Assembly (NCBI GenBank): GCA_964493695.1
Contig: CAZBPG010000005.1
Coordinates: 20,602 to 84,601 of the forward strand
DNA: 64,000 bases
Reading direction: 5' to 3'
Source: an uncultured Chitinophaga sp.
Lineage (GTDB): Bacteria; Bacteroidota; Bacteroidia; Chitinophagales; LD1
The first letter of the stretch is position 1, and each line of letters begins with the position of its first letter. Positions 2,144 to 60,598 of this stretch are shown here, in pieces. Position numbers and translations under genes: made by a program. The notes under the pieces were generated by a model, which saw only the letters and a program-made list of their open reading frames with translations, had not been told where the DNA came from and ran no database searches.

Positions 2144-2153
2144 GTATAATTTT

Positions 2154-36438: not shown

Positions 36439-36440
36439 GC

Positions 36441-38377: not shown

Positions 38378-38381
38378 AGTT

Positions 38382-40333: not shown

Positions 40334-41329
40334 ATGAGTATTGTACCAAGGATAAAATCTAAAGTTTTTCGTGCATATAGAGAGTTGGTTTTTGAAACAC
40401 CTCTAATTTCTCACAACATAAAATATCCTAGGCGTAACATCATAATCATGTATCACGGTATTGATACAGCAGGTAGAAATTTGTTTAATGGTAGACATAC
40501 TCCTATTCATTTTTTCGAAAAGCAAATTCGTTTTCTCAAAACCCGGCTTAAAGTAGTTCCACTAAAAGATTACTTTGAAAACAGTAATTCGCAAAGTGAT
40601 TTGTGTGCTATTACTTTTGATGACGGGTATCTGAACAATTTGACAAATGCACTTCCTATTCTTGAAAAATACAATTGTCCTGCTACTTTTTTTATTACCG
40701 GCATGAATGAGATAGGTTCTGATATACTATGGGCTGATTATGTAAACATCGTTAATAAACTGTGTTATAAAGAAGTAAAAATAGACGATGAGGTGTTTGT
40801 GAATTCAAATGAAAATTACGTTTCAAAAAGTCGAGGCTTAGCATTGTTAGATATTGTAAAGACCGAGAAGTGCGATTATACTTATAAGGAAAAAATTTAT
40901 GCTGCATTTAACAACCATGTGAATTTTAAAAAAGAAGAAAAATATTTCGAGTACTGGAAATTAATGACTGACGAACAGATAAAACTATTGTCAAAATCAA
41001 GATATGCAGAAATAGGAAGTCACGGATACTACCACAACAATCTTGGCAATATTTCAAAAGATTCAGCATATGATGAATTGACTCGCTCAAAAAAGTACTT
41101 AGAAAATTTAATACAAAAAGAAGTTACCTCTATCGGCTATCCAGACGGCTCTTATAGCGATTCGGTAAGTAATTATGCTGCAGATATCGGCATTGTACAT
41201 CAAACATGCAGCGAATACTTTAATAAAACAGAAGACCGATGGAACACTGTTCTCAAAAACAGGGCAGGAGTCTACAATTTCGATTCTGCGGGGAATCAGT
41301 TGCTGAGTGCACTTAACCACGAATTATGA
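40334..41329 (+). CDS. polysaccharide deacetylase (NodB homology / CE4)
   Basis: AITFDDGYLNN, ATFFITG and EIGSHGYYHNNL correspond to NodB motifs 1-3. Confidence 0.8.
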   Translation: MSIVPRIKSKVFRAYRELVFETPLISHNIKYPRRNIIIMYHGIDTAGRNLFNGRHTPIHFFEKQIRFLKTRLKVVPLKDYFENSNSQSDLCAITFDDGYLNNLTNALPILEKYNCPATFFITGMNEIGSDILWADYVNIVNKLCYKEVKIDDEVFVNSNENYVSKSRGLALLDIVKTEKCDYTYKEKIYAAFNNHVNFKKEEKYFEYWKLMTDEQIKLLSKSRYAEIGSHGYYHNNLGNISKDSAYDELTRSKKYLENLIQKEVTSIGYPDGSYSDSVSNYAADIGIVHQTCSEYFNKTEDRWNTVLKNRAGVYNFDSAGNQLLSALNHEL

Positions 41330-42270
41330 ATAACGAGTATCGTTTCGAGAGGTTGAATGAGAAAAACATCATCGACCTTCTTCCGCTCTATTTGGATGCA
41401 TTTCATGAAGTACGCTCGATTGATATTGTCCGGGCAAAATTTGATACTGCTTCATTTGGAGCGAAAAACTGGGCATTTATTGCCTACGCAAATGACAATA
41501 CTGCAGCAGCACTATATGCTTTGTTTCCGGTAATTATTACAAAAAATGAACGAGAAATTCTTGCTGGGCAGGTCGGTGATTTAATGACACATAGCAATCA
41601 TCGAAGAAAAGGTCTTTATATTACCCTAGCTGATATGACACATCAACTTGCACGCCTTGAGGGCGTTGAACTTATTTTTACTGTTCCTTATGGAGAAAAT
41701 GCCTCTTATCAAGGTTTTATGAATCGATTAAATTTTATACACACACACAACTTGAATGGCTACTATTTTAAAGTAAATGCTTTCCCTACGTTTTTGTTTA
41801 CTTCAAAAAGTCACTTCATAAATCAAATTTATCTTGCATTTGCAAAACAAATTCTTTCGCGCTTGTTTAGTATTGTATATTCATTTAAGAACGATCTTGT
41901 TTCAGATTACGCTGAAGTAATTAGGAGCAATTCCTTTTTCGATTACAAAAAAAAATACAGTCAAACTTACGTAATGCAGATTGACAACGTAGCTGTTTGG
42001 TTTAAAATTGATAAAGGATCGCTAAAAGTTGGGGATATAGAGAAGAAATCGAATAAAAATTTCGAAAACATTTTGATAGGTTTAAAATGGGTAGCTTTTG
42101 CGCTTGGAATACGAATAATTCAATTTGAAGCAAGCCCCGATACTTATTTGGATAAACTACTACAAAAAATTGCAACTCCCATTTGCAATTATCGCGTTTG
42201 CCTCCTAAACTTCTCGAACCTTTCCGATACCGATTTCAAATTTACTTTTGCCGATCTTGATAACTTTTAA
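41326..42270 (+). CDS. GNAT-family acyltransferase
   Basis: GQVGDLMTHSNHRRKGLYITLADMTHQLARLEG resembles GNAT motif A. It is coupled to the upstream gene by an ATGA overlap. Confidence 0.55.
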   Translation: MNNEYRFERLNEKNIIDLLPLYLDAFHEVRSIDIVRAKFDTASFGAKNWAFIAYANDNTAAALYALFPVIITKNEREILAGQVGDLMTHSNHRRKGLYITLADMTHQLARLEGVELIFTVPYGENASYQGFMNRLNFIHTHNLNGYYFKVNAFPTFLFTSKSHFINQIYLAFAKQILSRLFSIVYSFKNDLVSDYAEVIRSNSFFDYKKKYSQTYVMQIDNVAVWFKIDKGSLKVGDIEKKSNKNFENILIGLKWVAFALGIRIIQFEASPDTYLDKLLQKIATPICNYRVCLLNFSNLSDTDFKFTFADLDNF

Positions 42271-43448
42271 TGTGTTTCCATATAATGAAGGGTAAAAGGA
42301 TTTTTATTGTTTCCACAGAATTTCCGCCTGGACCGGGAGGCATAGGGTCGCATGCATATCAAGTTTCGAAAGAGTTGTATGCCCTTGGATGGGAAGTAAG
42401 TGTTTTTAGTGAACAAGCTAATTGTCCAGAAGAAGAAATTAGGGCATTCAACGAAAAATCTCCTTTTAAAATTTTTCGCTTATCCCCTACACCATCGTTC
42501 GTTTCCCTTTTAGTTAAATTATTCAAACTACTTGCAGCATTTCTGAAGCATCGACCCGATGTTGTTTTAGGAACGGGTAAACATGGCGCATGGTTTGCTG
42601 TATTGATAGGTAAACTAACTTTTACAAAAACAACAGTTGTTGGTCATGGAACAGAATTTATTACCACCATGTCTGCACATTCAAGAAACATAAACAATTG
42701 GATCTATTCAAATGCCAGTGCTATTGTTTATGTTTCAAATTACACCAAACGAATTGCAGAAAAAGTAGGTATCGCGTGCAAAAGGTCTTACGTAATTCAT
42801 AATGGCGCAGATGACAGTTTATTCTATCCCTTACAAGAAAAAGAAATAGCGGAATTCAAAAATTTTAAAAACATTAATAAGCAAAAGATTATTACTACCG
42901 TTGGCAATGTTCAGCCGCGCAAAGGTCATGAATGGGTGATAAGAGCTATGCCCAAAATTCTGAAATCAATTCCTGATGCCCATTACTATTGCATAGGCCC
43001 ACCTTCTATTAAAAACCATCTTCAAAACCTTGCCAAAGAATTACAGATAGAGAAACATGTTCATTTTACGGGAAGAATATTAAACTCAGACTTGTTGTTA
43101 TGGCTAAATGCCACTGATGTTTTTGTTATGACCAGCATAGCCACTGATTATGGAGATGTAGAAGGCTTTGGGATAGCGGTGATTGAAGCAGCACTATGTA
43201 GAAAACCTGCAGTAGTAACTAGTGAGTCAGGACCTGGTGAAGCAATTATTGAAAATGTAACAGGATTTGGAGCAAAAGAAAGAGACATTGATACTATTGC
43301 ACAAAAGCTAAAGGAACTTCTGCAAGATGAAGGCCTAAGAAATACCATGGGAGAAAATGCGCTCAATAATGCAAAGCAAAATTTAACATGGTCAATTGTT
43401 GTCAAAAAATATGATGCAGTGCTATCAAAGCTTATTGAAAAATTATAA
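42270..43448 (+). CDS. glycosyltransferase family 4
   Basis: RIFIVSTEFPPGPGGIGSHAY is at the N-terminus and EGFGIAVIEAALCRKPAVVT in the C-terminal domain. An alternative ATG lies at 42285. Confidence 0.85.
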   Translation: MCFHIMKGKRIFIVSTEFPPGPGGIGSHAYQVSKELYALGWEVSVFSEQANCPEEEIRAFNEKSPFKIFRLSPTPSFVSLLVKLFKLLAAFLKHRPDVVLGTGKHGAWFAVLIGKLTFTKTTVVGHGTEFITTMSAHSRNINNWIYSNASAIVYVSNYTKRIAEKVGIACKRSYVIHNGADDSLFYPLQEKEIAEFKNFKNINKQKIITTVGNVQPRKGHEWVIRAMPKILKSIPDAHYYCIGPPSIKNHLQNLAKELQIEKHVHFTGRILNSDLLLWLNATDVFVMTSIATDYGDVEGFGIAVIEAALCRKPAVVTSESGPGEAIIENVTGFGAKERDIDTIAQKLKELLQDEGLRNTMGENALNNAKQNLTWSIVVKKYDAVLSKLIEKL

Positions 43449-44726
43449 AAAGGAACTTGCCTCTTCTATGAATTGTTTGTAATTCTTCTCGGCATTGTAC
43501 TTCTTGTTCCAAGTATTAAATGCCTCTTTTCGCATATTGCTTCGCGCTTCAGGTTCTAGTAAGTAATAGCGCAATATTTCCTGTTTTACTTTTTCAGCAT
43601 TAGGATACGGAGGCAACAAAAAGCCGTTCCGTCCATCCTCAATAATTTCAGCAACTCCACCTACATTAGTTCCAATAACGGGTACGCTATAACTCATTGC
43701 CTCCATCATCGAAACAGGAATTCCCTCTGTTTGGCTTACGTTTAAAAAGAAGTCGAATTTTTTTTGGTCGTATAACTTAAACAATTCACATTTTTCTGTT
43801 TGACCCTTAAATGAAAATCTGATGTTCTCATTTAATGTAAGTTTTTGATCGGCATACTCTTTTATTTTATTGAATCCTTCCTCAGAATTATGGACGTGTC
43901 CGACATGAATCCATTCAATCTTGATATCTGTAATCAATGATAGCGTATCTATTATCAAATCAATTCTCTTGATCATCTGTATGTAAGCTACACTTATTAT
44001 CCGTATGGTGTCAGAGTTGATTTTGTCAATAAAACTCCGGTTTGCCGCAATGCCTATTCTGTTCACTGAAACTTTTTTCTTATCAAAGGTAGAAAGCTGG
44101 TGTTTCTCACAAAAATATTCCATTGCATTTCCAGAGATAAAATAAAGATGGTTTAGATGATTGAAAATATATTTTCTGAAAAACTGATATTTAACCGGGC
44201 TTCTTTCAAAATAGACATCCTGCGAATGTGCACGGCAGATAACTTTTATTGCTGGAACTGCTTTTTTAACCAAGATAGCCGCCATCGAACTTTCAATCAT
44301 CCAATAAGAATAAATGAGTAAATGTGAAACATTTATTTTCTCACTTTTTATCACCTTGTCTAAAAATTGCTTAGTAGCAATAGCTCTTGTGTAAAAAGCA
44401 AACAACTCCTTAAGCAAACCAAAACTTATCACACGCCTTTGCTTAAAAACAATTTCATGTAGTTCAAAATAAAGCATAGGCTTAAAAAACAACTGGAACG
44501 CTTTTATCCTTATCAGAACATTAGTTACTGGAGCGTACCGGTAGACTATCGCATTGGTAGGTGTACATCGCCTTTCCGTGTGACGAGTATCTGCCGAAAT
44601 GACAATCATTTTATCAACTCTTTGAGATAGTCCATTTATTTCTTCATCCAAATAGCTATCAGAGAAATGAAACGGGTAGTAAAGGGAAAAAAAAATGATA
44701 GTTTTGTCGCGCGGATTGGTTGTCAT
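43443..44726 (-). CDS. glycosyltransferase family 4 with an N-terminal extension
   Basis: TEGIPVSMMEAMSYSVPVIGTNVGGVAEIIEDGRNGFLL is present. The ATG at 44726 is preferred to the track TTG at 44738. It is a paralog of 46513-47796. Confidence 0.8.
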   Translation of the reverse strand: MTTNPRDKTIIFFSLYYPFHFSDSYLDEEINGLSQRVDKMIVISADTRHTERRCTPTNAIVYRYAPVTNVLIRIKAFQLFFKPMLYFELHEIVFKQRRVISFGLLKELFAFYTRAIATKQFLDKVIKSEKINVSHLLIYSYWMIESSMAAILVKKAVPAIKVICRAHSQDVYFERSPVKYQFFRKYIFNHLNHLYFISGNAMEYFCEKHQLSTFDKKKVSVNRIGIAANRSFIDKINSDTIRIISVAYIQMIKRIDLIIDTLSLITDIKIEWIHVGHVHNSEEGFNKIKEYADQKLTLNENIRFSFKGQTEKCELFKLYDQKKFDFFLNVSQTEGIPVSMMEAMSYSVPVIGTNVGGVAEIIEDGRNGFLLPPYPNAEKVKQEILRYYLLEPEARSNMRKEAFNTWNKKYNAEKNYKQFIEEASSFL

Positions 44727-44744
44727 AAAATAAGGCAAAAAAAG

Positions 44745-45335
44745 ATGGTTACTTGGAGTAAAATTAAGGAAAGAATTTACTATGAATTTCTTTCTTTGGT
44801 TAAACCTGAAATGATAGGTGTAAAAAATGGCGCAGGCAAAAATGTGTTAAAAGATACACGTGTCAGTAATTTTAGTCATATTTCAAACCCTAGTAATGTT
44901 TTTTTGGGTGACAATGTTTTTATTGCTCACTTTACCTATATCGATGGGTTTCACCGCTCCATTAAAATTGGCAATGGTTGTCAGATTTCCAATTTCACTA
45001 GCATACTGACCCATTCTACTCATCACGCTATTCGTCTTTACGGAGAAGCTCTTCCATTATATTGGCAAACGAGTATGAAAGGGCTGATTACTGGTCCTGT
45101 AGAAATTGGGGAATATACTTTCGTTGGGTCGCATGTGGTAATTATGCCCGGTACTATCATTGGAAAAGGGTGTATTGTTGCCGCTTATTCTTTTTTAGAT
45201 GGCAAGTATGAGGATTATTCTATCGTAAAGGGTAATCCGGCAAAAGTGATTGGTGACACGAGAGAGATTGATGACTGGCTGCTAAGGGAATTCCCTGAAT
45301 TAAATGAATTTTATTACCTCAACATTAAAGAGTGA
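44745..45335 (+). CDS. hexapeptide-repeat (LbH) sugar O-/N-acyltransferase
   Basis: A left-handed beta-helix repeat region is visible (IGNGCQISNFTSI...VEIGEYTFVGSHVVIMPGTIIGKGCIVAAYSFL). The ATG at 44745 is preferred to the extended track ORF. Confidence 0.8.
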   Translation: MVTWSKIKERIYYEFLSLVKPEMIGVKNGAGKNVLKDTRVSNFSHISNPSNVFLGDNVFIAHFTYIDGFHRSIKIGNGCQISNFTSILTHSTHHAIRLYGEALPLYWQTSMKGLITGPVEIGEYTFVGSHVVIMPGTIIGKGCIVAAYSFLDGKYEDYSIVKGNPAKVIGDTREIDDWLLREFPELNEFYYLNIKE

Positions 45336-45414
45336 TGGAACTACATCCAAATGTTTCCGTAGCTCTCATTTGAAGTCTCGTATTGTTCACCGCAGCTAAA
45401 ATTAGAAATAAGTC

Positions 45415-46491
45415 TTGAAAAATGGTTCTTCGGAAACATCTATTGTTTTCCTTCCGGGATACTCTGACCATCCCATTTTAAATAATATCGATAACGATTA
45501 TCCTTTCACTTTTTTAAAGCAGTATCATGCTTTTGAAAAATTTCTTGGCAACGAAACAGGAGTTTTGTTTGAACCAACATCAGGCATTTTGGTCCCAATA
45601 AAAATTTACAAGAAATTTTTTTTTGTATTTGCTCAGTTTTTATACTCTCCTTTTAGAAAGGAAAAGCCAATTTTAGCTGAGGAAGAAGAAACATTTTGGA
45701 TGAATGCTGAGAGTTATCTTCGGGCAAATCTAAATGTTCAAAGAATTCTCCCATCACTGCAATTCTTCAACTGCTCTTCTCCCCCTAAAAATTCATTAAA
45801 CTGTCCTTTGGGAGTTTATTCAATCAACCTGATGCTTTCGGAAGAAGAAATTTTTGGAAAGATACAGGCACGTACACGTAAATATATTAGAGGGAGTTCA
45901 ACAAAAGAAATTGTTATAAAATATGGCGAGGAATGCTTGCCTGATTTCTATTTACTTCTTTCGCAAACTCTACTTCGTGAAGGTGCTTGGTGCGATTCTT
46001 TTGAAAACATTCAATCGTTTTATCGACTTTTAGCTCCCAAAAATATACTGTGCGCAGTTGCATATAGGGGGTCTTTACCCGAAGCTACTCTGCTAGTCCC
46101 CTACACTAATTACCTAGCATTTCTGTATTATGGAGCTGCTTACGAAAACAATGGTGCATCTACTACAAACAAATTTCTTCATTGGGAAATAATGAGAAAA
46201 TTAAAAGCTGAAGGAGTTACTAAATTGATTTTAGGAGGAGTTAGAATGGGAAATGTTTCAGGCACTAAGTACGAACGAATTCAATTTTTCAAAGAACGTT
46301 TGGGGCCTGAGATTGTTCCAGGGTATATTTGGAAAAAAGATTTGAATGTTACGCTTGCAAAAGCATATGATATCATCTTTGGTTTAAGAAATTCCTTTAA
46401 AGGAACAAAGGCAACTCCCGATGTAATTGATTTTTATAATCAAAGAAAGCGGGATACAAATACCACACAAGAGAATACTTCACTGGAATAA
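45415..46491 (+). CDS. FemAB / Acetyltransf_6 (BioF2-like) family transferase
   Basis: 358 aa. It follows the pattern ...RTRKYIRGS...DFYLLLSQTLLREG...LCAVAYRGSLPEATLLVPY...YYGAAYEN......NKFLHWEIMRKLKAEGVTKLILGGV typical of Fem-like double-GNAT proteins. The start is either TTG 45415 or ATG 45422. Confidence 0.55.
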   Translation: MKNGSSETSIVFLPGYSDHPILNNIDNDYPFTFLKQYHAFEKFLGNETGVLFEPTSGILVPIKIYKKFFFVFAQFLYSPFRKEKPILAEEEETFWMNAESYLRANLNVQRILPSLQFFNCSSPPKNSLNCPLGVYSINLMLSEEEIFGKIQARTRKYIRGSSTKEIVIKYGEECLPDFYLLLSQTLLREGAWCDSFENIQSFYRLLAPKNILCAVAYRGSLPEATLLVPYTNYLAFLYYGAAYENNGASTTNKFLHWEIMRKLKAEGVTKLILGGVRMGNVSGTKYERIQFFKERLGPEIVPGYIWKKDLNVTLAKAYDIIFGLRNSFKGTKATPDVIDFYNQRKRDTNTTQENTSLE

Positions 46492-46512
46492 GAAATTGAA
46501 TAACTCGAAGTT

Positions 46513-47796
46513 TTAATGCCCTGTTATTTTTTGAATCAAAGTCATGCTGTTTTTTTCTGAATTAAACTTTTCTTCCCAAACCCGTCTGGCGTTTTTCTTT
46601 AGGTTCTCTTTTTCTTCCGGCATTAAACTAAAATAGTACTTAATTTTTGAGGCTAGTTCTTTAGGTTCAATATCAACAGGTAGCAAAAAACCATTGAATC
46701 CGTCCTCTATCATCTCAGGTACCCCACCTACTTTTGTTGCAATTACCGGCACCCCAAAACTAAGTGCTTCCATAATAGAAACGGGAGTTCCTTCCGTAGT
46801 GCTTACATTGATGAAAAGATTTATTTTTTTTGCTTTATAGATTTCATACAGTTGTTCAAGAGATTTTCTTCCTGCCAATTCATATGTAATGTTGGTTTTA
46901 TATGCCAGTGCCCGTTTAGTGAATTTCTCGAAAGCGGAGAACTGGTTACTGCCGCAGTCATCGCCTACATGCAGCCACTCAATATCTATATCTGTTATCA
47001 ACTCCAGTGAACGAACTATCAGTTCAATTCTTTTTAAGGGTTGAATCCAAGCGTTACTAAGAATTGTAAGTTTATTACTTGACGATTCATATAACGAGTT
47101 TGTGTTTTCGCAACCTATTCGGTTTACAAATGCTTTAGACTTTTGCTTTGATATAGTCAAATGAGTTTTAAAGAAATAGTCCATCCCCTGTTCGGAAATG
47201 AAAATCGGAAAATCTGTGTGCTTGTAAACGAATTTTCGAAATGGCTGGTAGTTTTCAGCCATTCGGTCAAAGTATAAATCCAAGCTATGACTGCGGGTAA
47301 CAGTTTTAATTGGATATTTTTTTTTAAGCAGACTAGCCGCCAAAGCATATTCGAAGTTCCAGTAGCAATAAACAACTGTTTTGTATGCTCTAAAATCTAT
47401 TTCTTTCAAAAAAGGCTCAAGAAATTCCAAATATTTTTCTGCTTTAACCCAATAAGAGACAATGGCCTTCAAAACAGAAACACTAATTCCTTTGTTATAA
47501 ACTCGCTTTAGATTCAAGAGTTCATCTACAAAGATTCTATTCCCGATCAATTTAAATGACGAAATTTTATCGAAAAAATTTAAGACAACTTGAAGATTAT
47601 GTACTCTTACATTGGGTGGGACAGATAGGCATCCATCGTGTTCTGTGCTTAGTGAAATAACATCAACCGTTTCGAAATTTTCCGAAAGTTGCTGAACCTC
47701 ATTACTAATATAGGCATCATAAGAGACACCTTGATGCGTATAAGGGAAAAACCAGGTGAAAAGAAATGCCTTAGCTTTTTTATTATGTTTGTCCAT
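46513..47796 (-). CDS. glycosyltransferase family 4 with an N-terminal extension
   Basis: TEGTPVSIMEALSFGVPVIATKVGGVPEMIEDGFNGFLLP is present. The ATG at 47796 is preferred to the GTG at 47802. Confidence 0.8.
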   Translation of the reverse strand: MDKHNKKAKAFLFTWFFPYTHQGVSYDAYISNEVQQLSENFETVDVISLSTEHDGCLSVPPNVRVHNLQVVLNFFDKISSFKLIGNRIFVDELLNLKRVYNKGISVSVLKAIVSYWVKAEKYLEFLEPFLKEIDFRAYKTVVYCYWNFEYALAASLLKKKYPIKTVTRSHSLDLYFDRMAENYQPFRKFVYKHTDFPIFISEQGMDYFFKTHLTISKQKSKAFVNRIGCENTNSLYESSSNKLTILSNAWIQPLKRIELIVRSLELITDIDIEWLHVGDDCGSNQFSAFEKFTKRALAYKTNITYELAGRKSLEQLYEIYKAKKINLFINVSTTEGTPVSIMEALSFGVPVIATKVGGVPEMIEDGFNGFLLPVDIEPKELASKIKYYFSLMPEEKENLKKNARRVWEEKFNSEKNSMTLIQKITGH

Positions 47797-47900
47797 ATAC
47801 ACCGAAATGTATAAAAATGCCGCTTCGCAGCAGAAATGTTTACTTCAAAATTCTGTATATTATCTTTAATAACCCGTTTACAAATTGGGTGCTTGTTTTA

Positions 47901-48620
47901 ATGAATATTGATGATTTACCCAAGGAGCTGCTGAATCACAACGATTGGAAAAAACGTACCTATAACGAAGAGATGAGCCTACTGGAAAATGCGGGCTATT
48001 CGGAAATTCCTGAAATTCAAAAACTAGTTGATACCTCAAAAGCTAAACTGATAGAGTTTGTCAAAAAAAATATTGATGAACAAAAAGCCATTTTAGATAT
48101 AGGTTTTGGAACCGGTTTGTTTCTTAAGGAGATTGAGCAGTATAGATTTTATCTCTATGGTATAGATATGAATCGTCAATTTGTTACAAGATCTGAAGGT
48201 TACTTGCCCAAAGCACACCTATTTTTAGGTAATTATCTTCAGTTTAAAGCCCCAAAAAAATTCAAACTCATTTTTTCTATTAGTATGTTGATGTACTTAG
48301 AACCTTCCCGCATCAAAAAATTCTTCAACAAATTGTATGATGACCTGGATCCTAATGGATATGTTTTTATTCAGTACCCTCACGCCCTTAGTTTTAAGGA
48401 TTTGCTTTATCCTGACATTACCTACGTAAGGTATTCGCCTAAACAGCTTGAACGTTTAGTGCGAGGAAAATTTAACGTTATTAAAAGCGAACATTTTTAT
48501 GATGGGAGAAAAATAGGGTGGTTCGATAACAATCATTATTACTTTCCGAATAGTAAAATACGTACTGATACTGTTGAAAATACATCAATCTTAGTGCTTC
48601 AAAAAAAGCCTACTGACTAA
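47901..48620 (+). CDS. class I SAM-dependent methyltransferase
   Basis: Motif I is ILDIGFGTGLFLKEI, followed by FKLIFSISMLMYLEP. The ATG at 47901 is preferred to the extended ORF at 47817. Confidence 0.75.
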   Translation: MNIDDLPKELLNHNDWKKRTYNEEMSLLENAGYSEIPEIQKLVDTSKAKLIEFVKKNIDEQKAILDIGFGTGLFLKEIEQYRFYLYGIDMNRQFVTRSEGYLPKAHLFLGNYLQFKAPKKFKLIFSISMLMYLEPSRIKKFFNKLYDDLDPNGYVFIQYPHALSFKDLLYPDITYVRYSPKQLERLVRGKFNVIKSEHFYDGRKIGWFDNNHYYFPNSKIRTDTVENTSILVLQKKPTD

Positions 48621-48642
48621 GTCTTCTCCTCAAAAAAAGGTA

Positions 48643-49674
48643 ATGCAGAAAAAAATATTAGTCACATTTGATTGTGAACTTTTTTTAGGTAAGAGAAGTG
48701 GTTCAGTTGCCAATTGCATGTTGCAGCCTACGGAAAAAATTTTGGCCTTGTTAAAAAAGCATAAGGTAAGAGCCCTTTTTTTTGTCGACATGCTTTACCT
48801 GTGCCGATTAAAAGAAGCAGCAGAAAATTACGGCAATGCAAAAAAGGACTTTGATTTTATTGAAAAGCAATTGATTGAAATGGCAGAGCAAGGTCATTAT
48901 GTTTTCAACCACCTACACCCGCACTGGTTAGATGCCGCGTATGGTGAGGCGATTAATGAATGGGAACTTGCAAATTCTTCCAAGTATATCTTTGAATCAC
49001 TGAAAGAGTATGAAAAAGATGAAGTCTTTGACAGAACTATGAGTTTGCTTAATGAGATTTTGAGGAAAGCGAAAGTAAATTTTCCTGCGGACGGCTATCG
49101 TGCTGGTGGCCTGTACATTCAACCATTCTCTTCATTTAAAAAGTATTTTGAAAAATATCGGCTTCAAAACGATTTCAGCGTCTTGATAAATGCACTTGGC
49201 GAATCTGAGAACAATGCAGGACGATTCAATTTTTCTGGAGTAAAAAAGAACATTTACTCCTTCAAAGATGATGTTGTTACTGAAGATGAAACCGGTCCTT
49301 ATACTGAATATGCAATGAAGTTCGTGGAAATCCCTTTCGTCTATCGTCTGTTAAACAGTGCTTTTTATCGTTTGTTTTCGCGTAGCAAAAAACACCAACG
49401 ATATGGAAACGGAATTTCAATTACCAACAAGATATATTCTGCCAATAATAAGCGATTCACATCCACAGAAACATTTGCTGTAGAAATGTTAAACGATATA
49501 AAACTTCCACTTTACCTGAAAGAGGCAAGTCTAAATGGTTATCTTCATTTACTCTCTCATCCCAAACTTGTTTCAGATTACAACCTACAAGTTTTTGACA
49601 AGTTGCTCGCAAAATTGAACCTACTGGAAAACGTGGAATTCGATTTCAAAAAGTTTGTGTGGAGAGAACAATGA
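48643..49674 (+). CDS. hypothetical protein, polysaccharide-deacetylase-like (CE4-like)
   Basis: ILVTFDCELF, ALFFVD and NHLHPHW loosely parallel NodB motifs. The assignment is weak. Confidence 0.4.
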   Translation: MQKKILVTFDCELFLGKRSGSVANCMLQPTEKILALLKKHKVRALFFVDMLYLCRLKEAAENYGNAKKDFDFIEKQLIEMAEQGHYVFNHLHPHWLDAAYGEAINEWELANSSKYIFESLKEYEKDEVFDRTMSLLNEILRKAKVNFPADGYRAGGLYIQPFSSFKKYFEKYRLQNDFSVLINALGESENNAGRFNFSGVKKNIYSFKDDVVTEDETGPYTEYAMKFVEIPFVYRLLNSAFYRLFSRSKKHQRYGNGISITNKIYSANNKRFTSTETFAVEMLNDIKLPLYLKEASLNGYLHLLSHPKLVSDYNLQVFDKLLAKLNLLENVEFDFKKFVWREQ

Positions 49675-50960
49675 AAAAAGTACTGATCCTCTCTTATTTT
49701 TTCCCGCCATGTAATCTCACAGCAGCACAGCGTTCACAGTCTTGGGCAAACTATCTTTCAACTTATGGATATAGACCCATAGTGATAACAAGAAGATGGG
49801 ATGAAAAAATTTCACATTTAAGTGATGTTTCCAAATCAACCCCAAACGAAGTAAAACATGAAGTGCACAAAAACTATGAAGTGTTTTATCTTCCTTACCA
49901 TTCAAATCTGCGCGATAAAATTTACGTAAAGCATAAGGAAAGTAAGTTCAACTCTATTCGGAAAACACTTACGCTTTTCGAGCTATTACTTCAGCCATTT
50001 TTCGATTTCATCATTCCTTATAACAACATCGGGAAGTTTGCTCTGAGCTATTTGAAGCAGAACCAAGATGTAAAAAAAATGGTCGTTACTGGCAACCCTT
50101 TCAATCTCTTCAAGTTTGCTTTTACATTAAATAAAGCAACCGGCATTAAATGGATTGCCGATTACCGGGATGCCTGGACCACTAGCGAAATCAACCTCAT
50201 CAATAAAGGACTGCTTCATAAATTCATCAACTATTTGGAAACTTATTTTGAAAAAAAATGGGTAAGAACATCTTCATTAGTTACTGCAAGTTCACAACCA
50301 ATAGCGAATCACGTTAGTGTATTAGTGAAGAAAGAAGGCCATGCACTTTACAATGGCTTTGTAGCAGAAGACTTTAATGGTATCACAGTAAACGGTAAGT
50401 TTGAAGAATTTACAATAACTTATGTAGGAACCCTGTATGATGGGCAGAAAATAGAAATTTTTTGCGAGGCATTTAAAAAGCTGATAGATGAAGTACCCTC
50501 TGCGTCAGTTAAGTTTATCTTGCCTGGATTAAATTTTTACAAAGCGCAACAGCAACGTGTTGAGCGTGTGATGAAAGGTTACGAAAAGCACTACTCGTGT
50601 ACGGAACGTATGGAACGAGATAAAATTCTGGCAATCGAAAAGCAATCTCATTTATTGCTACATGTTGCATGGGGTGCACATAGCGGCATTATTGCCAGCA
50701 AGATTTATGAATACATTGCCAGCGGAACTTTTATCTTAGTTACACCGACCGATAATGGAGCAATTGAAGAAATTGTTCAAAAAAGTAAATGTGGCGTTTG
50801 CACAAGAACAGTAGATGAAACTTTTATCTTTTTAAAGCAGGAATACGAAAGTTATTTACAAGGGAAGTTCAGAACAAACGATGTAACAGGGCAAAATACA
50901 TTGCAATTCTCAAGACAAAAACAAGTCGGCAGATTGGCGGAATTGTTAGATAAAATATAA
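49671..50960 (+). CDS. glycosyltransferase (GT4-like)
   Basis: MKKVLILSYFFPPCNLTAAQRSQSWANYL is at the N-terminus and IIASKIYEYIASGTFILV at the C-terminus. It has an ATGA overlap with the upstream stop. Confidence 0.65.
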   Translation: MKKVLILSYFFPPCNLTAAQRSQSWANYLSTYGYRPIVITRRWDEKISHLSDVSKSTPNEVKHEVHKNYEVFYLPYHSNLRDKIYVKHKESKFNSIRKTLTLFELLLQPFFDFIIPYNNIGKFALSYLKQNQDVKKMVVTGNPFNLFKFAFTLNKATGIKWIADYRDAWTTSEINLINKGLLHKFINYLETYFEKKWVRTSSLVTASSQPIANHVSVLVKKEGHALYNGFVAEDFNGITVNGKFEEFTITYVGTLYDGQKIEIFCEAFKKLIDEVPSASVKFILPGLNFYKAQQQRVERVMKGYEKHYSCTERMERDKILAIEKQSHLLLHVAWGAHSGIIASKIYEYIASGTFILVTPTDNGAIEEIVQKSKCGVCTRTVDETFIFLKQEYESYLQGKFRTNDVTGQNTLQFSRQKQVGRLAELLDKI

Positions 50961-50969
50961 TTACGCGGC

Positions 50970-52073
50970 ATGAAGAAAGTATTGGTGTGCGTAGGTACTC
51001 GTCCAAACCTCATTAAGATAACTCAGCTAGAAAAGTGTTTTGCACATTATACCTCTATTGAATACAAGTTACTTCATACCGGTCAGCATTACGACTACAA
51101 CATGAATGACATTTTCTTTCAACAATTGGGCGTAAAGCCCCCTGATGTTTTTTTAAACATCAACCAGGGAGGACAAATAGAAGTGATTTCGCAAATCATG
51201 AAAAAGTTTGAGGAGTTTGTTCTTGACTATAAACCTGACTTAGTTATGGTGCCTGGTGATGTAAATTCTTCTTTTGCATGTGCGTTTGTCGCTTCACGTC
51301 ATAATATTCCTGTAGCACACATCGAAAGCGGATTGCGCAGTTTTGATATGACTATGCCCGAAGAGGTAAATCGAATTTTGATTGATGATGTGGCCGAGTT
51401 GTTTTTTGTAACTGAGTCAAGCGGTGAAGAAAACTTATTGAAAGAAAATAAAAGCGAAAAAAAAATTCGCTATGTAGGAAACAGCATGATTGATTCGTTG
51501 GTAGCGTTCATGCCGTTGATTGACAAATCAGAAATCAGAAAAAACATAAAGGCAGATGATTACTACTTGGTAACGTTTCATCGTCCCGCAAATGTTGATG
51601 ATTCGAAAAATTTGAAAATTGTTGCAGAAATTCTTACCGAAATTTCACAAAAGAGAAAAGTGGTTTTCCCAATTCATCCAAGAACAAGAAAACGCTTTCA
51701 TGAATTCGGATTTGAAAAAGTAATCGAGAACGAAAACATACTTATTACAGAACCACTTGGCTATCTTGATTTTATTTCACTTGCTAAGAATGCACATGCT
51801 GTAATTACTGATTCGGGCGGAGTACAGGAAGAAACAACATTTCTCGGAGTCCCTTGCATTACACTTCGACAAAGCACCGAAAGACCCGTTACAGTTACAG
51901 AAGGGACGAATACGATGTGTGAGTTAGATGTAAAAACAATTAGTGGCATCCTGAATTCTATTGATAAAGGAACCTATAAAAAGGGCACTATTCCGAAGTT
52001 TTGGGATGGAAAAACCTCTGAAAGAATTGCCAAAGAAGTAGATGATTTTTTGAGGAACTATAAAAAAAAATGA
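50970..52073 (+). CDS. UDP-N-acetyl-sugar 2-epimerase, non-hydrolysing (WecB/WbpI family)
   Basis: Motifs include VGTRPNLIKI, GDVNSSFACAFVASRHNIPVAHIESGLRSFD..MPEEVNR and DSGGVQEETTFLGVPCITLRQSTERP. Confidence 0.9.
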   Translation: MKKVLVCVGTRPNLIKITQLEKCFAHYTSIEYKLLHTGQHYDYNMNDIFFQQLGVKPPDVFLNINQGGQIEVISQIMKKFEEFVLDYKPDLVMVPGDVNSSFACAFVASRHNIPVAHIESGLRSFDMTMPEEVNRILIDDVAELFFVTESSGEENLLKENKSEKKIRYVGNSMIDSLVAFMPLIDKSEIRKNIKADDYYLVTFHRPANVDDSKNLKIVAEILTEISQKRKVVFPIHPRTRKRFHEFGFEKVIENENILITEPLGYLDFISLAKNAHAVITDSGGVQEETTFLGVPCITLRQSTERPVTVTEGTNTMCELDVKTISGILNSIDKGTYKKGTIPKFWDGKTSERIAKEVDDFLRNYKKK

Positions 52074-52074
52074 A

Positions 52075-53040
52075 ATGAAAAATTTTGTTCTTATCGGTGC
52101 TTCAGGTTACATAGCCCCGCGACACTTAAAGGCAATTAAAGACACCGGCAATAACTTACTGGCAGCATACGATCCTTTCGACAGTGTTGGAATAATGGAC
52201 AGTTACTTCCCTAATGCCGACTTCTTTGTTGAATTCGAGCGCTTTGACCGGCATGTTGACAAGCAAAAACGAAAAAGTACCACTGTTGATTTTGTATCGA
52301 TTTGCTCCCCCAATTATCTTCACGACTCGCATATCCGTTTTGGATTACGCAACGGGGCAAATGTAATTTGCGAAAAACCCTTGGTACTTAATCCCTGGAA
52401 CGCTCAAAGTTTAATTGACCTTGAAAAAGAAACCGGGAAGCACATCAATAACATTTTGCAATTGCGCTTACATCCTAACATTATTGCTTTAAAAAAGAAA
52501 GTTGAAGAAAGTCCGAAAGATAAAGTTTTCGAATTCGACCTGACATACATTACATCTCGCGGTAACTGGTACTATACCAGTTGGAAGGGCGATGTTTCAA
52601 AATCCGGTGGAATTGCAACTAACATTGGCATCCATTTTTTTGATATGCTTACCTGGATTTTTGGAGACACGAAAAAGAATGTTGTACATATATATACCCA
52701 TGATCGTGCAGCTGGTTATCTCGAGTTTTCAAAAGCAAAAGTGCGGTGGTTTTTAAGCATCAATGCCGATACTTTGCCGGAAAGTGCGAAGCAAAAAAAT
52801 ATGCGCACATTTCGGTCCATGAGTATAGAAGGACAAGAAATTGAATTCAGCGATGGATTTACCGATTTGCACACTAATAGTTATATCGAGATTGTTAAAG
52901 GCAAGGGTTTTACAGTGAAAGATGCGATGCCGAGTATTGAAATTGCCTATACTATTCGTAAAGAAACGCCCATTGGATTAAAAGGCGATTATCATCCATT
53001 TGCAAAGGAAAAAGGAAGCAATCATCCTTTTCACTTATAG
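52075..53040 (+). CDS. Gfo/Idh/MocA oxidoreductase, WbpB/WlbA-like (UDP-GlcNAcA 3-dehydrogenase type)
   Basis: MKNFVLIGASGYIAPRHLKAIKDTGNNLLAAYDPFDSVGIMDSYFP closely parallels the WbpB N-terminus as I remember it. ICEKPL is also conserved. Confidence 0.8.
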   Translation: MKNFVLIGASGYIAPRHLKAIKDTGNNLLAAYDPFDSVGIMDSYFPNADFFVEFERFDRHVDKQKRKSTTVDFVSICSPNYLHDSHIRFGLRNGANVICEKPLVLNPWNAQSLIDLEKETGKHINNILQLRLHPNIIALKKKVEESPKDKVFEFDLTYITSRGNWYYTSWKGDVSKSGGIATNIGIHFFDMLTWIFGDTKKNVVHIYTHDRAAGYLEFSKAKVRWFLSINADTLPESAKQKNMRTFRSMSIEGQEIEFSDGFTDLHTNSYIEIVKGKGFTVKDAMPSIEIAYTIRKETPIGLKGDYHPFAKEKGSNHPFHL

Positions 53041-53070
53041 TTTCTGATTTTAAATCTCTGACTTCCTGTT

Positions 53071-54921
53071 ATGTGTGGCATTGCCGGGTTTTATTCTTCT
53101 TCAAAAAAAATAAGCGAGATTGATTTGCGCATGATGACGGATACATTACGTCATCGGGGACCTGATGCCTGTGGCTATTATTTCAACGAAGAGAATACCG
53201 TAGGTTTAGGTCATCGAAGATTGAGCATTATTGATTTAAGCGAAGCCGCCAATCAACCTATGTTTTCTAACAGTAAGAGATACGTGGTCGTGTTTAACGG
53301 AGAGGTATACAATTTTCGTGAGATAGCAAAACAACTTAACATTTCACCACAAACAGCCAGTGATACTGAAATTATCATTGAGGCGTTTGAAAAGAAAGGA
53401 GCAGGATTTGTTCATTTGCTCAACGGCATGTTCGCCATTGCTATTTATGATACGCTGGAAAGAAAAACATTTCTCTTCCGTGACCGCCTTGGAGTGAAAC
53501 CCCTCTACTACTTCTCCAATGAAAAAACTTTTGCCTTTAGCTCTGAAATAAAAGCACTACTGAAAAGTGATTTTGTTTCACAAAACGTTCAGCTGAACAA
53601 AAGAACCATTTCTACTTTTTTATATGCTGGCTACATTCCTGAACCATTCACTATTTACAACAACATTCATCGCCTTCCTTCAGGTAGTTACGTAATAGTA
53701 AGTGAAACTGGTGCAGAAGTAAATAGCTATTGGAAAGCTGAAGAGAAGGTTTCAACTAAGGTAAATTCAGATTTCAAATCAGCTAAAGAAGAGCTAAAGA
53801 ATCTTCTTGTTTCTTCCGTTCGCTACCGTATGATAAGCGATGTACCTTTCGGGACTTTCTTAAGTGGCGGCATTGATTCAAGTACTGTTACAGCTATTGC
53901 ACAGAGCATATCAGACAAACCGGTTAAAACCTTTTCGATAGGTTTTAAAGAGGCTAAATTTAACGAAAGTGAATATGCCAGAAAAGTTTCAAGGCATCTT
54001 GGTACACAACATCATGAATTTATTGTGAGTGAAGGCGATGCGATGGAATTGATAGACAAAATGATGACAGTATATGATGAACCGTTTGCCGATTCATCAG
54101 CATTGCCTACCATGCTGGTTTCAAAACTTGCCCGACAACATGTAACCATGACGTTAAGTGGTGATGGTGGTGATGAATTGTTTATGGGCTATGGCGCGTA
54201 TGATTGGGCAAGGCGACTTGATAATCCGTTAGTGAAACTGTTGCGGGAACCACTCGCTACTTCTCTCTCGCTATTAGGCAACCGGTATAAACGTGGTGCG
54301 CAAGTATTTAATTACAAAAGCGAAGCGCATAAAAAAAGTCACATTTTTTCGCAAGAACAGTATTTTTTCAGCGAAGATGAATTGACTGATTTGCTAGCCG
54401 AAGATTTCAAAATTGACCCTTTGTTTAAAGAGAACTTTAGTACAGAAAGAATACTATCAGCAGCGGAAAAGCAGGCGTTGTTTGATGTTAAGTATTACCT
54501 GAAAGACGATTTACTTGTGAAAGTAGATATTGCCAGTATGCAATTTTCGCTTGAAACACGCACACCATTCTTAGATTACCGTGTAGTTGAGTTTGCGCTG
54601 AATCTTTCGGAAGATTTAAAAAAGAAAGACGGCACTTCTAAATATTTACTCAGGGAAGTGCTTTATGATTATGTCCCGAAAGAATTTTTTAACCGTCCTA
54701 AATGGGGTTTCTCAATCCCATTGGCAAAATGGCTAAAAACGGACTTGCATTATTTGATTGAAAAATATTTGAACGAAGAGACAGTTGCTGCGTGCAGCGC
54801 TATGAATTTTGAGAAAGTAAAATCGCTTGTTACCCGATTTGAAACAGGAGAGGATTATTTATTCAATCGCATTTGGGTTTTAACTCTACTACACCGGTGG
54901 CTTAAAGAAAATTCTAAATGA
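53071..54921 (+). CDS. asparagine synthase (glutamine-hydrolysing) family amidotransferase, WbpS-like
   Basis: MCGIAGFY provides the N-terminal Cys nucleophile. LSGGIDSS is the PP-loop. The length is 616 aa. Confidence 0.9.
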   Translation: MCGIAGFYSSSKKISEIDLRMMTDTLRHRGPDACGYYFNEENTVGLGHRRLSIIDLSEAANQPMFSNSKRYVVVFNGEVYNFREIAKQLNISPQTASDTEIIIEAFEKKGAGFVHLLNGMFAIAIYDTLERKTFLFRDRLGVKPLYYFSNEKTFAFSSEIKALLKSDFVSQNVQLNKRTISTFLYAGYIPEPFTIYNNIHRLPSGSYVIVSETGAEVNSYWKAEEKVSTKVNSDFKSAKEELKNLLVSSVRYRMISDVPFGTFLSGGIDSSTVTAIAQSISDKPVKTFSIGFKEAKFNESEYARKVSRHLGTQHHEFIVSEGDAMELIDKMMTVYDEPFADSSALPTMLVSKLARQHVTMTLSGDGGDELFMGYGAYDWARRLDNPLVKLLREPLATSLSLLGNRYKRGAQVFNYKSEAHKKSHIFSQEQYFFSEDELTDLLAEDFKIDPLFKENFSTERILSAAEKQALFDVKYYLKDDLLVKVDIASMQFSLETRTPFLDYRVVEFALNLSEDLKKKDGTSKYLLREVLYDYVPKEFFNRPKWGFSIPLAKWLKTDLHYLIEKYLNEETVAACSAMNFEKVKSLVTRFETGEDYLFNRIWVLTLLHRWLKENSK

Positions 54922-60566: not shown

Positions 60567-60598
60567 TCAACGTACGAGCCGGTGTATCAAACCAGAAA

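Follow-up and report, generated by a model that had tools for sequence, protein, structure and literature searches.

A recurring Fem-fold and CE4-like gene cassette in a mosaic Wzm/Wzt surface-glycan locus, with a predicted Vim-analogous route to an aminoacylated sugar

The O-antigen clusters of P. aeruginosa O5 (Wbp) and O6 (WbpS) contain WbpB, WbpI, WbpG and the AsnB-type WbpS. The linking-sugar pathway of P. gingivalis and Tannerella forsythia comprises WbpA, WbpB, WbpE and WbpD, together with WbpI, WbpS, VimE, VimA and VimF (PMC7468200, PMC13086638). P. intermedia is without WbpB, WbpD, VimA and VimE, and its linking sugar is an N-alanyl, partly O-methylated deoxyhexose from an uncharacterised pathway; the authors of that study expect linking-sugar pathways to be diverse (PMC11969387). 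There is also precedent in other phyla for the clustering of vimA/vimE-like genes, a TIGR03108-type AsnB gene and Wbp genes in O-antigen or EPS loci (PMC7468200), and families of the TIGR03019, TIGR03006 and TIGR03108 types were earlier tied to VimA and WbpS by Veith et al.

The glycan locus described here lies in the window, by which we mean the whole stretch of 64,000 nucleotides that was analysed, from a Bacteroidota host that has a T9SS and whose nearest named relatives are Bacteroidales/Bacteroidota MAGs. The locus spans at least 35 kb, starting at ~28.2 kb and ending past 64 kb, beyond the window, and the GC content falls from ~0.44 to ~0.35 at 28 kb. We consider it probable, as a joint claim, that the region forms the middle of a mosaic Wzm/Wzt (ABC-transporter-dependent) surface-glycan locus of O-antigen type, and that the residue made by this locus is an aminoacylated, amidated (di)amino-uronic acid, reached via a Vim-analogous route. 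The predicted exporter of the glycan consists of Wzm, an ABC-2 permease (30684-31529, +; Pfam ABC2_membrane, E 6.5e-15), and Wzt, an ATPase whose C-terminal extension is long (31538-32779, +; Pfam ABC_tran, E 9e-23); none of the window proteins scanned gave a Wzx-type Pfam match. The original prediction had placed seven named open reading frames in a Wzm/Wzt glycan locus with several GT4s: both transporter genes were found, all seven frames are present where it had put them, and the GT4s gave Pfam matches (e.g., E 1e-36, 4e-22 and 1.6e-23). Taken as a whole, its observation is real in part.

The mosaic content of the locus includes a Qui4NFo branch, five GT2s, an ArnB/ArnC-like block and a WbuX-like amidotransferase. 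The last of these (58569-60566, +) is a class-II glutamine amidotransferase, with a GATase_7 match, a GlmS-like N-terminus and an MCGI start, fused to a WbuX/WbpG-type N-acetyl-sugar amidotransferase (TIGR03573 WbuX, E 4e-38, residues 309-648), and is predicted to function in acetamidino formation. The second DegT aminotransferase (61717-62880, +) is ArnB/perosamine-synthase-like, and its orthologues (71-77% identity) occur in blocks of the GT4-DegT-MT-GT2 or GT2-DegT type that lack WbpB; it is not a clear WbpE, the match to ArnB in the PDB being stronger than that to WbpE (2e-79 vs 2e-37). Because no WbpA, WbpD-type N-acetyltransferase or clear WbpE was found within the window, the diamino-sugar pathway is incomplete as seen, though the locus runs past the window's end. 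Neither a WaaL nor an initiating transferase turned up in the window, which leaves attachment of the glycan to lipid A-core hypothetical.

At the core of the locus is a recurring, uncharacterised cassette of a GT4, a SAM-dependent methyltransferase, a Fem-fold transferase and a divergent CE4-like protein, which probably replaces an acetyl group of an amino sugar by an amino acid. Seven independent related metagenomic groups were examined (loci numbered with an L below), and in every one of them the gene for the CE4-like protein (37-47% identity) lies directly downstream of the Fem-like gene, a pairing beyond chance. The other partners were present in fewer of these groups: the methyltransferase in five, the cassette GT4 in four, a VimF-like GT in three, AsnB in two, and the epimerase and Wzm in one each. 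The Wzm homologues of L017/L018 share 49-56% identity with that of the window. Contexts vary, with L021 being a stand-alone island.

In the window, the cassette GT4 is duplicated, and a VimF-like GT and AsnB are present as in some relatives. The two GT4 copies (copy 1, 43443-44738, -, 431 aa, Glycos_transf_1 E 4e-22; copy 2, 46513-47802, -, 429 aa, Glycos_transf_1 E 1.6e-23) are 36% identical to each other; copy 1 shares 39-41% identity with the cassette GT4 of L007 and L021, and copy 2 31-38% with those of L007, L009, L017 and L021. Homologues (35-42% identity) of the methyltransferase (47817-48620, +; Methyltransf_23/25/11) adjoin the Fem-like gene in L007, L009-L011, L017/18 and L021-23. 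The VimF-like GT4 (49659-50960, +), whose likely start is the ATG at 49671, in an ATGA overlap with the stop of the CE4-like gene, is the sole significant match of P. gulae VimF among the window proteins (E 6e-15; next GT4, 4e-4). Alignment of its family to VimF with hhalign covered the full length (387 columns; prob 99.3, E 3e-20), and homologues follow the Fem-like/CE4-like pair in L007, L011 and L017/18. The original prediction had not singled out this GT. It had also described an LbH acyltransferase as WbpD-like (44667-45335, +; possible starts 44667 or 44745). The frame and the LbH class stand, but its best NCBIfam match is WbbJ (5.7e-18) with no WbpD/WlbB-type match, and its PDB matches are Vat and galactoside/maltose O-acetyltransferases, so that it is of the O-acetyltransferase type (WbbJ/WcaF/Vat/GAT-like).

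For the FemAB-like protein (45415-46491, +), membership of the Fem superfamily was borne out by profiles, an AF2 model (pLDDT 94) and Foldseek. The profile of its family, for which 520 representative homologues were collected, matches FemX, FmhB, FemA and aminoacyl-tRNA-dependent peptide synthases (3e-19 to 2e-11). TIGR03019 is matched by 58 of 60 family members and is the sole NCBIfam match of the window protein, at 29.8 against a curated cutoff of 260. The best Foldseek matches of the model, which has tandem GNAT domains, are Sbb17/Sba18 (streptothricin-type peptide synthases solved in complex with streptothrisamine), FemX and MprF, all of them aminoacyl-tRNA-dependent transferases, and K293 of the FK motif is invariant across the family. 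We therefore predict an N-aminoacyl transferase that depends on aminoacyl-tRNA and acts on an amino sugar; judged solely from the fold neighbours, aminoacyl-tRNA rather than acyl-CoA would be the donor. The protein had been proposed as the counterpart of VimA, yet its place is outside the VimA clade: a BLASTP comparison with VimA of P. gulae gave E 2.3, a VimA HMM search did not detect it, the profile alignment to VimA is confined to the C-terminal GNAT domain, and the family's own HMM scores the window protein at 337 bits and VimA at 30 bits. By profile and model, it is a true Fem-fold enzyme of a family paralogous to and separate from VimA. In L009 and L010, near-identical over their common genes, the Fem-like gene has a true VimA homologue as its neighbour, so one protein is not a simple substitute for the other. 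The original prediction had tied its strict form, a locus for the organism's T9SS cargo-anchoring glycan, to a place of this protein within the VimA clade; as it lies outside, the strict form fails.

The two proteins originally called CE4 deacetylases differ in the strength of their matches, and neither bears out the suggested likeness to VimE, with no match to VimE itself or to the NCBIfam VimE model NF053580. The first (40334-41329, +; Polysacc_deac_1, E 3.6e-24) is a bona fide CE4 deacetylase. It forms a translationally coupled trio (40334-43448) with a GNAT acyltransferase (41326-42270, +; Acetyltransf_9, E 1.3e-8; ATGA overlap at 41326-41329) and a GT4 (42270-43448, +; E 1e-36), and its CE4 and GNAT make up a second deacetylate/re-acylate pair of the locus. 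The trio has no VimE or VimA match and no homologues in the related cassette loci. The second protein, that of the cassette (48643-49674, +), has a weak Polysacc_deac_1 match (E 4.6e-5; 23.8 bits, cutoff 23.1), shared by four of seven family members, and no PDB sequence match; the family's invariant CE4-type motifs (TFD.E, H..H.HPHW, RAGG and HPK) keep Asp and His conserved, and DUF7033 is absent. Its assignment as CE4 is marginal, and we regard it as a divergent, probable N-deacetylase.

The sugar-nucleotide enzymes were identified much as originally predicted. The WbpB/WlbA-like oxidoreductase (52075-53040, +) is a WbpB orthologue, a UDP-GlcNAcA 3-dehydrogenase, matching P. aeruginosa WbpB (PDB 3oa2) over its full length (residues 1-310, E 1.1e-111); further PDB matches are 3o9z (1e-92) and then 5e-9 or weaker. 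Directly upstream lies the WecB/WbpI-type non-hydrolysing 2-epimerase (50970-52073, +; Epimerase_2, E 4e-102; TIGR00236 at 311 bits, over its cutoff), with matches to UDP-2,3-diacetamido-2,3-dideoxy-glucuronic acid 2-epimerase 8sxv (3e-76) and archaeal UDP-GlcNAc 2-epimerase 4neq (3e-82). An epimerase homologue (47% identity) follows the Fem/CE4-like pair in L019, but the WbpI-WbpB pair is inside the cassette only in this window among the loci examined. None of the related cassette loci examined has WbpB, so the native substrate of the cassette may be something other than a 2,3-diamino sugar. The AsnB/WbpS-like protein (53071-54921, +; Asn_synthase, E 4e-99; GATase_7, E 7e-40) is a complete glutamine-dependent amidotransferase with an MCGI start and catalytic Cys2, predicted to form a uronamide in the manner of WbpS; its best NCBIfam match is TIGR03108 (XrtA/PEP-CTERM amidotransferase; 520 bits vs a cutoff of 817). 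A homologue with 58% identity is found in L007, and another AsnB at the end of L012.

Since WbpB, an adjacent WbpI-type epimerase, AsnB, deacetylases and a Fem-fold transferase all occur here in one Wzm/Wzt locus, the original prediction's weaker claim, that of a glycan with an aminoacylated and amidated diamino-uronic acid, can reasonably be inferred, and its interpretation overall is partly supported. What is established is the identity of the genes, the fold, how the families relate and the conservation of the cassette; we infer substrates, step order, the choice of amino acid and the glycan that results. WbpB and an aminotransferase (with no clear WbpE in the window) would convert UDP-GlcNAcA to a 2,3-diamino uronic acid, which the WbpI-type epimerase would turn into the manno form. 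The CE4-like enzyme could then take off an N-acetyl group, and the Fem-like enzyme would re-acylate the amine thus freed, taking the amino acid from aminoacyl-tRNA. AsnB would amidate the carboxylate and the methyltransferase may methylate the sugar or the amino acid, before the VimF-like GT and the cassette GT4s add the residue to an undecaprenyl-linked glycan, to be exported when finished via Wzm/Wzt. As signal peptides and TM segments are missing from all of the enzymes, every enzymatic step would be cytoplasmic. Such a route would be analogous to Wbp/Vim, except that its Fem-family enzyme is a paralogue and its deacetylase looks unrelated.

It is unlikely, in our estimate, that this aminoacylated sugar is the host's T9SS linking sugar, with its free alpha-amine as the PorU acceptor for type-A CTD cargo. 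The residue might in that case cap the non-reducing end of the Wzm/Wzt-exported O-polysaccharide, and ABC-transporter O-antigens are classically capped at that distal end. The enzyme logic is that of vimA-vimE-vimF plus wbpS, down to a specific VimF-like GT, and the P. gingivalis linking sugar is proposed to sit at the distal O-PS end, with VimF proposed to transfer it (PMC13086638). A methyltransferase, a Fem-like enzyme and a deacetylase also fit the type of chemistry that a P. intermedia-type sugar would need. Against this reading, the conserved methyltransferase could block the amine, orthology to VimA or VimE is lacking, and VimA and the Fem-like gene occur together in L009/L010. A Por_Secre_tail gene lies within 10 kb in the cassette contigs with a visible Pfam marker (the window, L017/18 and L021-23), so these hosts have a T9SS. 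The role of the glycan as cargo anchor is nevertheless speculative, its basis being cargo-gene proximity only, which carries little weight given 10 to over 100 such genes per T9SS species (PMC7468200). Two type-A CTD cargo genes had been predicted in the window; one is type-A (10421-12772), and the other, nearest the locus and beside its PorP/SprF partner gene, is a type-B SprB-like gene (21859-26892). Type-B SprB-like cargo is anchored via this partner and not via LPS.

We also see little chance that this is a serotype-variable O-antigen or capsule locus of the ordinary kind, in which the cassette is an exchangeable decoration module with no link to protein anchoring, its Fem-like protein acting as a CoA-dependent N-acyltransferase, or adding an amino acid that is later capped, to give a decorated, functionally unremarkable sugar. 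The GC fall is typical of horizontally exchanged glycan loci, the content is mosaic, the cassette occurs in contexts as varied as the L021 island, and N-acyl and N-aminoacyl amino sugars occur in O-antigens without a T9SS (PMC11969387). Against this, the nearest structural neighbours are all aminoacyl-tRNA-dependent, none being a CoA-dependent single-domain GNAT, and the four-gene core is kept across more than 50% sequence divergence, which suggests one defined product and not ad hoc decoration.

Among known systems, the PEP-CTERM/XrtA EPS genes (TIGR03019 FemAB-like, TIGR03006 deacetylase and TIGR03108 amidotransferase) likewise unite the three enzyme classes in one glycan locus, but the window proteins score far under the curated cutoffs (TIGR03019, 29.8/260; TIGR03108, 520/817), and this T9SS Bacteroidota locus has no exosortase or PEP-CTERM proteins. 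With P. aeruginosa O5/O6, the locus shares WbpB, a WbpI-type epimerase and WbpG/WbuX-type and AsnB-type amidotransferases; it differs in being Wzm/Wzt-dependent rather than Wzx/Wzy-dependent, in having its WbuX-like domain fused to a class-II GATase in place of HisH/HisF-like partner genes, in the absence of WbpA, WbpD and WbpE from the window, and in the added Fem/CE4-like cassette. The Fem-like protein has the tandem GNAT fold (TM 0.6-0.75) and conserved FK-motif lysine of FemX/FmhB/FemA, Sbb17/Sba18 and the MprF C-domain, at only 10-16% sequence identity and in a context of polysaccharide synthesis instead of peptidoglycan, antibiotic or lipid modification. Relative to Wbp/Vim, the Fem-like enzyme belongs to a separate family (337 vs 30 bits), the CE4-like protein is without DUF7033 or an NF053580 VimE match, WbpA, WbpD and WbpE were not identified within the window, the cassette core also takes in a methyltransferase and an additional GT4, and the genes sit inside a Wzm/Wzt locus whereas those of Wbp/Vim are scattered and belong to a Wzy-dependent system. 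Shared with Wbp/Vim are the WbpB orthologue, WbpI-type epimerase and AsnB-type amidotransferase, the set of deacetylase, Fem-superfamily transferase and VimF-like GT4, the T9SS of the host, and the ATGA overlap of the CE4-like and VimF-like GT genes, as in P. gulae vimE/vimF.

The window ORFs were mapped by Pfam, NCBIfam and PDB sequence searches, and every ORF named in the original prediction was recovered where it had been placed. The gene for GreA (376-852) is followed on the minus strand (1001-10161) by a PorV/PorQ-family gene (1001-2083), an adjoining gene for a 1385-aa protein without a family match, and one for a 1264-aa TonB-dependent-receptor-like protein with CarboxypepD_reg/Plug domains (6367-10161), a possible T9SS-linked outer-membrane gene set. 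Two cargo genes had been described as type-A CTD cargo. One of them (10421-12772, minus strand), encoding a PETase-like alpha/beta hydrolase with three PKD-like domains, does carry a type-A CTD; the second (21859-26892, plus strand), encoding a 1677-aa SprB-repeat protein, has a type-B (CHU_C) CTD instead. The latter gene and its PorP/SprF-like partner (27046-28116, plus strand) form a pair (21859-28116) directly upstream of a low-GC glycan locus. At roughly 28 kb the GC content steps down from about 0.44 to about 0.35, a shift typical of exchangeable glycan loci, and a run of mostly plus-strand ORFs extends from about 28.2 kb to the window end. The run opens with a multi-TM protein of no assigned family (28209-29540) and a DegT aminotransferase, continues with Wzm (30684-31529, an ABC2_membrane match) and Wzt (31538-32779, an ABC_tran match; both plus strand), a methyltransferase (32792-33748, minus strand) and a formyltransferase, and then holds five GT2s (34565-39302) and a Mannosyl_trans3/GT8-like protein (39369-40325). 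No Pfam match to Polysacc_synt/Wzx was found in the window, which does contain two multi-TM proteins without a family (28209-29540 and 56144-57472). The region therefore has the make-up of an ABC-transporter-dependent O-polysaccharide locus (Wzm and Wzt, without Wzx/Wzy), and it is a mosaic Wzm/Wzt glycan locus.

Within this locus, an LbH acetyltransferase (44667-45335) and a Fem-like protein (45415-46491) are followed on the plus strand by a methyltransferase (47817-48620), a CE4-like protein (48643-49674), a GT4-like, VimF-like protein (49659-50960), a 2-epimerase (50970-52073), WbpB (52075-53040) and AsnB (53071-54921). For the purpose of finding relatives of the Fem-like protein, a word-indexed homology search with the protein or its profile returned almost no matches, and HMMER run over the full set of 1.84 billion representative sequences identified 520. 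We then compared the surroundings of seven Fem-like representatives, no two of them from the same 50%-identity cluster of the representative library. In all seven groups a homologue of the CE4-like protein (37-47% identity) is encoded directly downstream of the Fem-like gene. A methyltransferase of the 47817 type is adjacent in five of the seven (L007, L009/10, L011, L017/18 and L021-23), a GT4 of the 43443/46513 type in four (L007, L009/10, L017/18 and L021-23), and a VimF-like glycosyltransferase comes next in order in three (L007, L011 and L017/18). AsnB is found nearby in 2/7 groups (L007, with 58% identity, and L012), while an Epimerase_2 gene next in order (L019) and a Wzm gene (L017/18) occur in one group each. 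In L021-23 the four core genes, for the GT4, methyltransferase, Fem-like and CE4-like proteins, form an island of their own, and among the cassette loci examined (the window and the seven groups) WbpB is confined to the window. Por_Secre_tail genes lie within 10 kb of the cassette in L017/18, L021-23 and the window, and these hosts therefore have a T9SS. In the window, the cassette GT4 is duplicated (43443-44738 and 46513-47802, 36% identity, both on the minus strand), with the two copies flanking the LbH and Fem-like genes, which suggests a local rearrangement relative to the methyltransferase-Fem-CE4-like order of the relatives. In L017 (12099-14714) and L018 (10043-12658), the VimF-like glycosyltransferase is part of an 871-aa protein of about twice the usual length, suggesting a fusion with a second domain.

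Single-sequence searches with the Fem-like protein gave marginal matches (Acetyltransf_6, E 0.009; TIGR03019, E 3e-7). A profile built from 60 sequences of its family (A1) matched the Sbb17/Sba18 aminoacyl-tRNA-dependent peptide synthases, FmhB, FemX and FemA at 3e-19 to 2e-11, and 58 of the 60 members match TIGR03019. The AlphaFold (AF2) model is confident (pLDDT 94, pTM 0.90), and a Foldseek search with it returned Sbb17, FemX, FmhB, FemA and MprF (E 2e-13 to 1e-10); its top structural neighbours are all aminoacyl-tRNA-dependent tandem-GNAT enzymes. The protein also has the lysine of the C-terminal FK..FG motif common to these neighbours: K293 is invariant in 60/60 family members and lines up with the Sba18 FK motif, and in FemX this lysine is catalytic. 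Because of the profile matches, the confident model with its neighbours, and the invariant FK-motif lysine, 45415-46491 is a genuine Fem-fold (tandem GNAT) transferase, in line with its proposed Fem-family membership. Publicly, members of this clade are annotated as peptidoglycan FemA/FemB or lipid II glycyltransferases, peptidoglycan-bridge labels that are almost certainly wrong in this context. The CE4-like family keeps the invariant motifs TFD.E, H..H.HPHW, RAGG and HPK; its Pfam support is marginal, its profile gave no PDB sequence match, and a single-sequence structural model reached a pLDDT of 40.

The Vim reference proteins were taken from the recA-vimA-vimE-vimF genes of Porphyromonas gulae, which were retrieved with a wobble-degenerate pattern of the published primer for the vimF start. 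Five other matches to this pattern, three of them in Saprospiraceae, were chance GT4 N-termini without similarity to VimF, and an exact search of genome contigs with the published primer, aimed at Tannerella forsythia vimA, found nothing. The Fem-like protein had been likened to VimA, but it falls outside the VimA family: there is no pairwise similarity (BLASTP E 2.3), the VimA HMM misses the window protein, and on the Fem-like HMM the window protein scores 337 bits and VimA 30. In a profile comparison, the C-terminal GNAT domain alone aligns (probability 96-98%). In L009/L010, a true VimA homologue of 316 aa (E 2e-41; 31% identity with the P. gulae protein) is encoded close to the Fem-like gene, and since it is present beside a Fem-like gene, VimA and the Fem-like protein represent distinct, coexisting families. 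These two loci, a metagenomic contig and the MAG GCA_002059065.1, are near-identical over their common genes; the vimA homologue (L009 367-1317, L010 876-1826) sits upstream of the Fem-like/CE4-like pair, three genes away, and neither of these short contigs shows a VimE homologue. The GNAT at 41326-42270, next to the true CE4, was also considered as VimA-like and discarded, as it resembles neither VimA nor the L009 homologue. Two window proteins had been put forward for comparison with VimE, the CE4 at 40334-41329 and the CE4-like protein at 48643-49674. On NF053580 (deacetylase VimE), P. gulae VimE, which has DUF7033, reaches 691 bits; neither window protein matches this model, and BLASTP, tblastn and hhalign comparisons with VimE were non-significant. 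The VimF-like protein (49659-50960) is similar to VimF over 448 aa (BLASTP E 6e-15), remotely so at 22-24% identity, and its family profile aligns with VimF over 387 columns (hhalign probability 99.3, E 3e-20). With the other five GT4s of the window at E 4e-4 or weaker, it is the window's one specific VimF relative. Through an ATGA overlap, the probable start codon of its gene is coupled to the stop codon of the CE4-like gene, as happens in vimE/vimF.

Support for the Wbp pathway was uneven. The WbpB label of 52075-53040 was confirmed by a full-length match to Pseudomonas aeruginosa WbpB (PDB 3oa2, E 1.1e-111), with the next non-WbpB oxidoreductase only at 5e-9 in the PDB search, and this assignment is secure. 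The epimerase (50970-52073) passes the TIGR00236 wecB model and matches a solved UDP-2,3-diacetamido-2,3-dideoxy-glucuronic acid 2-epimerase (8sxv, 3e-76) about as well as an archaeal UDP-GlcNAc 2-epimerase (4neq, 3e-82). Its gene ends 1 nt before wbpB, and this placement favours a WbpI identity. AsnB (53071-54921), a candidate for the uronamide-forming amidotransferase WbpS, is full-length with an MCGI start, and its best NCBIfam match is TIGR03108 (XrtA/PEP-CTERM amidotransferase), under the cutoff. The sole LbH protein of the window (44667-45335) had been called WbpD-like, a label that was not retained: its matches are WbbJ, WcaF, Vat and GAT O-acetyltransferases, with none to WbpD/WlbB at E <1e-5. 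No WbpA was found either, as no window ORF of at least 100 aa has a UDP-sugar dehydrogenase Pfam match. Neither DegT of the window is clearly WbpE. The one at 29557-30648 is DesI/VioA-like and paired with the Qui4N formyltransferase. The one at 61717-62880 matches ArnB at 2e-79 and WbpE at 2e-37 in the PDB search, and its orthologues (71-77% identity) lie in GT4-DegT-MT-GT2 or GT2-DegT blocks without WbpB; we did not accept it as WbpE, since this context suggests an ArnB/ArnC-like block.

Other modules share the locus with the cassette. The DesI/VioA-like aminotransferase (29557-30648) and a dTDP-4-amino-4,6-dideoxyglucose formyltransferase (33823-34557; NF005755, 318 bits against a cutoff of 238), both on the plus strand, flank Wzm/Wzt and predict an N-formyl-Qui4N (viosamine) residue, possibly the chain cap that the extended C-terminus of Wzt recognises. 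A translationally coupled plus-strand trio (40334-43448) of CE4 deacetylase (40334-41329), GNAT (41326-42270) and GT4 (42270-43448) makes up a second deacetylate/re-acylate module, independent of the first, and none of the related loci examined has homologues of it; its GNAT is a 314-aa protein of the Acetyltransf_9 type with a C-terminal half lacking a family assignment. Downstream of AsnB, a GT4 (54918-56147) precedes a multi-TM protein without a Pfam match (56144-57472) and a GT2 (57435-58559), which together with the ArnB-like DegT (61717-62880, plus strand) look like an ArnB/ArnC/ArnT-type block for lipid-carrier amino-sugar transfer. In the Bacteroidales MAG loci L013-L016 a GT2 adjoins an ArnB-like DegT; the window GT2 is 62% identical to its L015/16 counterpart, and the DegT is 71-77% identical to its L013-L016 orthologues and 64-66% across several phyla. 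Going by how its closest homologues are named, the DegT places the host in Bacteroidota, probably near Bacteroidales. Between the window GT2 and DegT lies 58569-60566 (plus strand), whose 665-aa product joins two amidotransferases, a class-II glutamine type (Ntn, MCGI start) and a PP-loop N-acetyl-sugar type of the WbuX/WbpG kind (TIGR03573, E 4e-38); this fusion is predicted to suffice alone for acetamidino sugars, without the usual HisH/HisF-like partners. The locus continues with a GT4 (60554-61720), a methyltransferase (62963-63613) and a further GT2 (from 63668) that runs past the window end.

The original prediction held that this locus encodes the T9SS cargo-anchoring glycan, or at least an aminoacylated and amidated 2,3-diamino-uronic acid glycan. 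Of its observations, WbpB, AsnB and the Fem fold stood, while the WbpD-like LbH, VimA/VimE membership and the two type-A CTDs did not. Because a WbpI-type epimerase and WbpB are inserted in the window cassette, a 2,3-diamino-uronic acid is a plausible residue for it to modify here; in other loci the substrate of the cassette is probably a different N-acetyl amino sugar. The cassette-pathway proteins all lack TM segments, consistent with a glycan completed in the cytoplasm before ABC export. We rather favour the conservative biochemical reading, in which the genes predict an aminoacylated, amidated (di)amino-uronic acid residue made by a Vim-analogous route. That the cassette glycan serves as the T9SS anchor seems unlikely to us. 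Bolder still is the idea of a second Vim-type route in T9SS Bacteroidota without VimA/VimE, making a linking sugar, aminoacylated and in many cases methylated, to which PorU would attach cargo, here placed on a Wzm/Wzt-exported O-polysaccharide; we give it little credence. A recent proposal puts the linking sugar at the distal O-PS end, transferred by VimF (2026; PMC13086638). In Prevotella intermedia, a different aminoacyl, partly methylated linking sugar of unknown pathway was reported in 2025, in an organism without WbpB, WbpD, VimA and VimE (PMC11969387). This differing sugar leaves room for the cassette as an alternative linking-sugar route, for which the case is circumstantial; if a second Vim-type route were real, the cassette would be a candidate pathway for the N-alanyl-(O-methyl)-deoxyhexose-type linking sugars of P. 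intermedia.

For linking-sugar synthesis in T9SS bacteria beyond Porphyromonas and Tannerella, the recurring four-to-six-gene cassette would offer the right chemistry: a deacetylase-like protein, a Fem-type transferase, a methyltransferase and glycosyltransferases including a VimF-like one. Even if unrelated to T9SS, it predicts a new family of sugar-modifying enzymes, presumably with aminoacyl-tRNA as donor, and the alignments of the Fem-like (A1) and CE4-like (A4) proteins are HMM-ready families for following it across genomes. The Wbp/Vim pathway itself was established by Veith et al. 2020, who noted a TIGR03019 match for VimA and, in other phyla, EPS/O-antigen loci where vimA/vimE-like, TIGR03108-type AsnB and Wbp genes lie together (PMC7468200). 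That such enzyme classes share a locus was therefore known before; the present analysis defines a cassette and an uncharacterised Fem-family clade. In its enzyme logic the cassette follows the Vim operon: a sugar would be deacetylated, aminoacylated and transferred, then amidated by AsnB. It would do so with a Fem-family paralogue and another deacetylase-like protein, and a methyltransferase is added.
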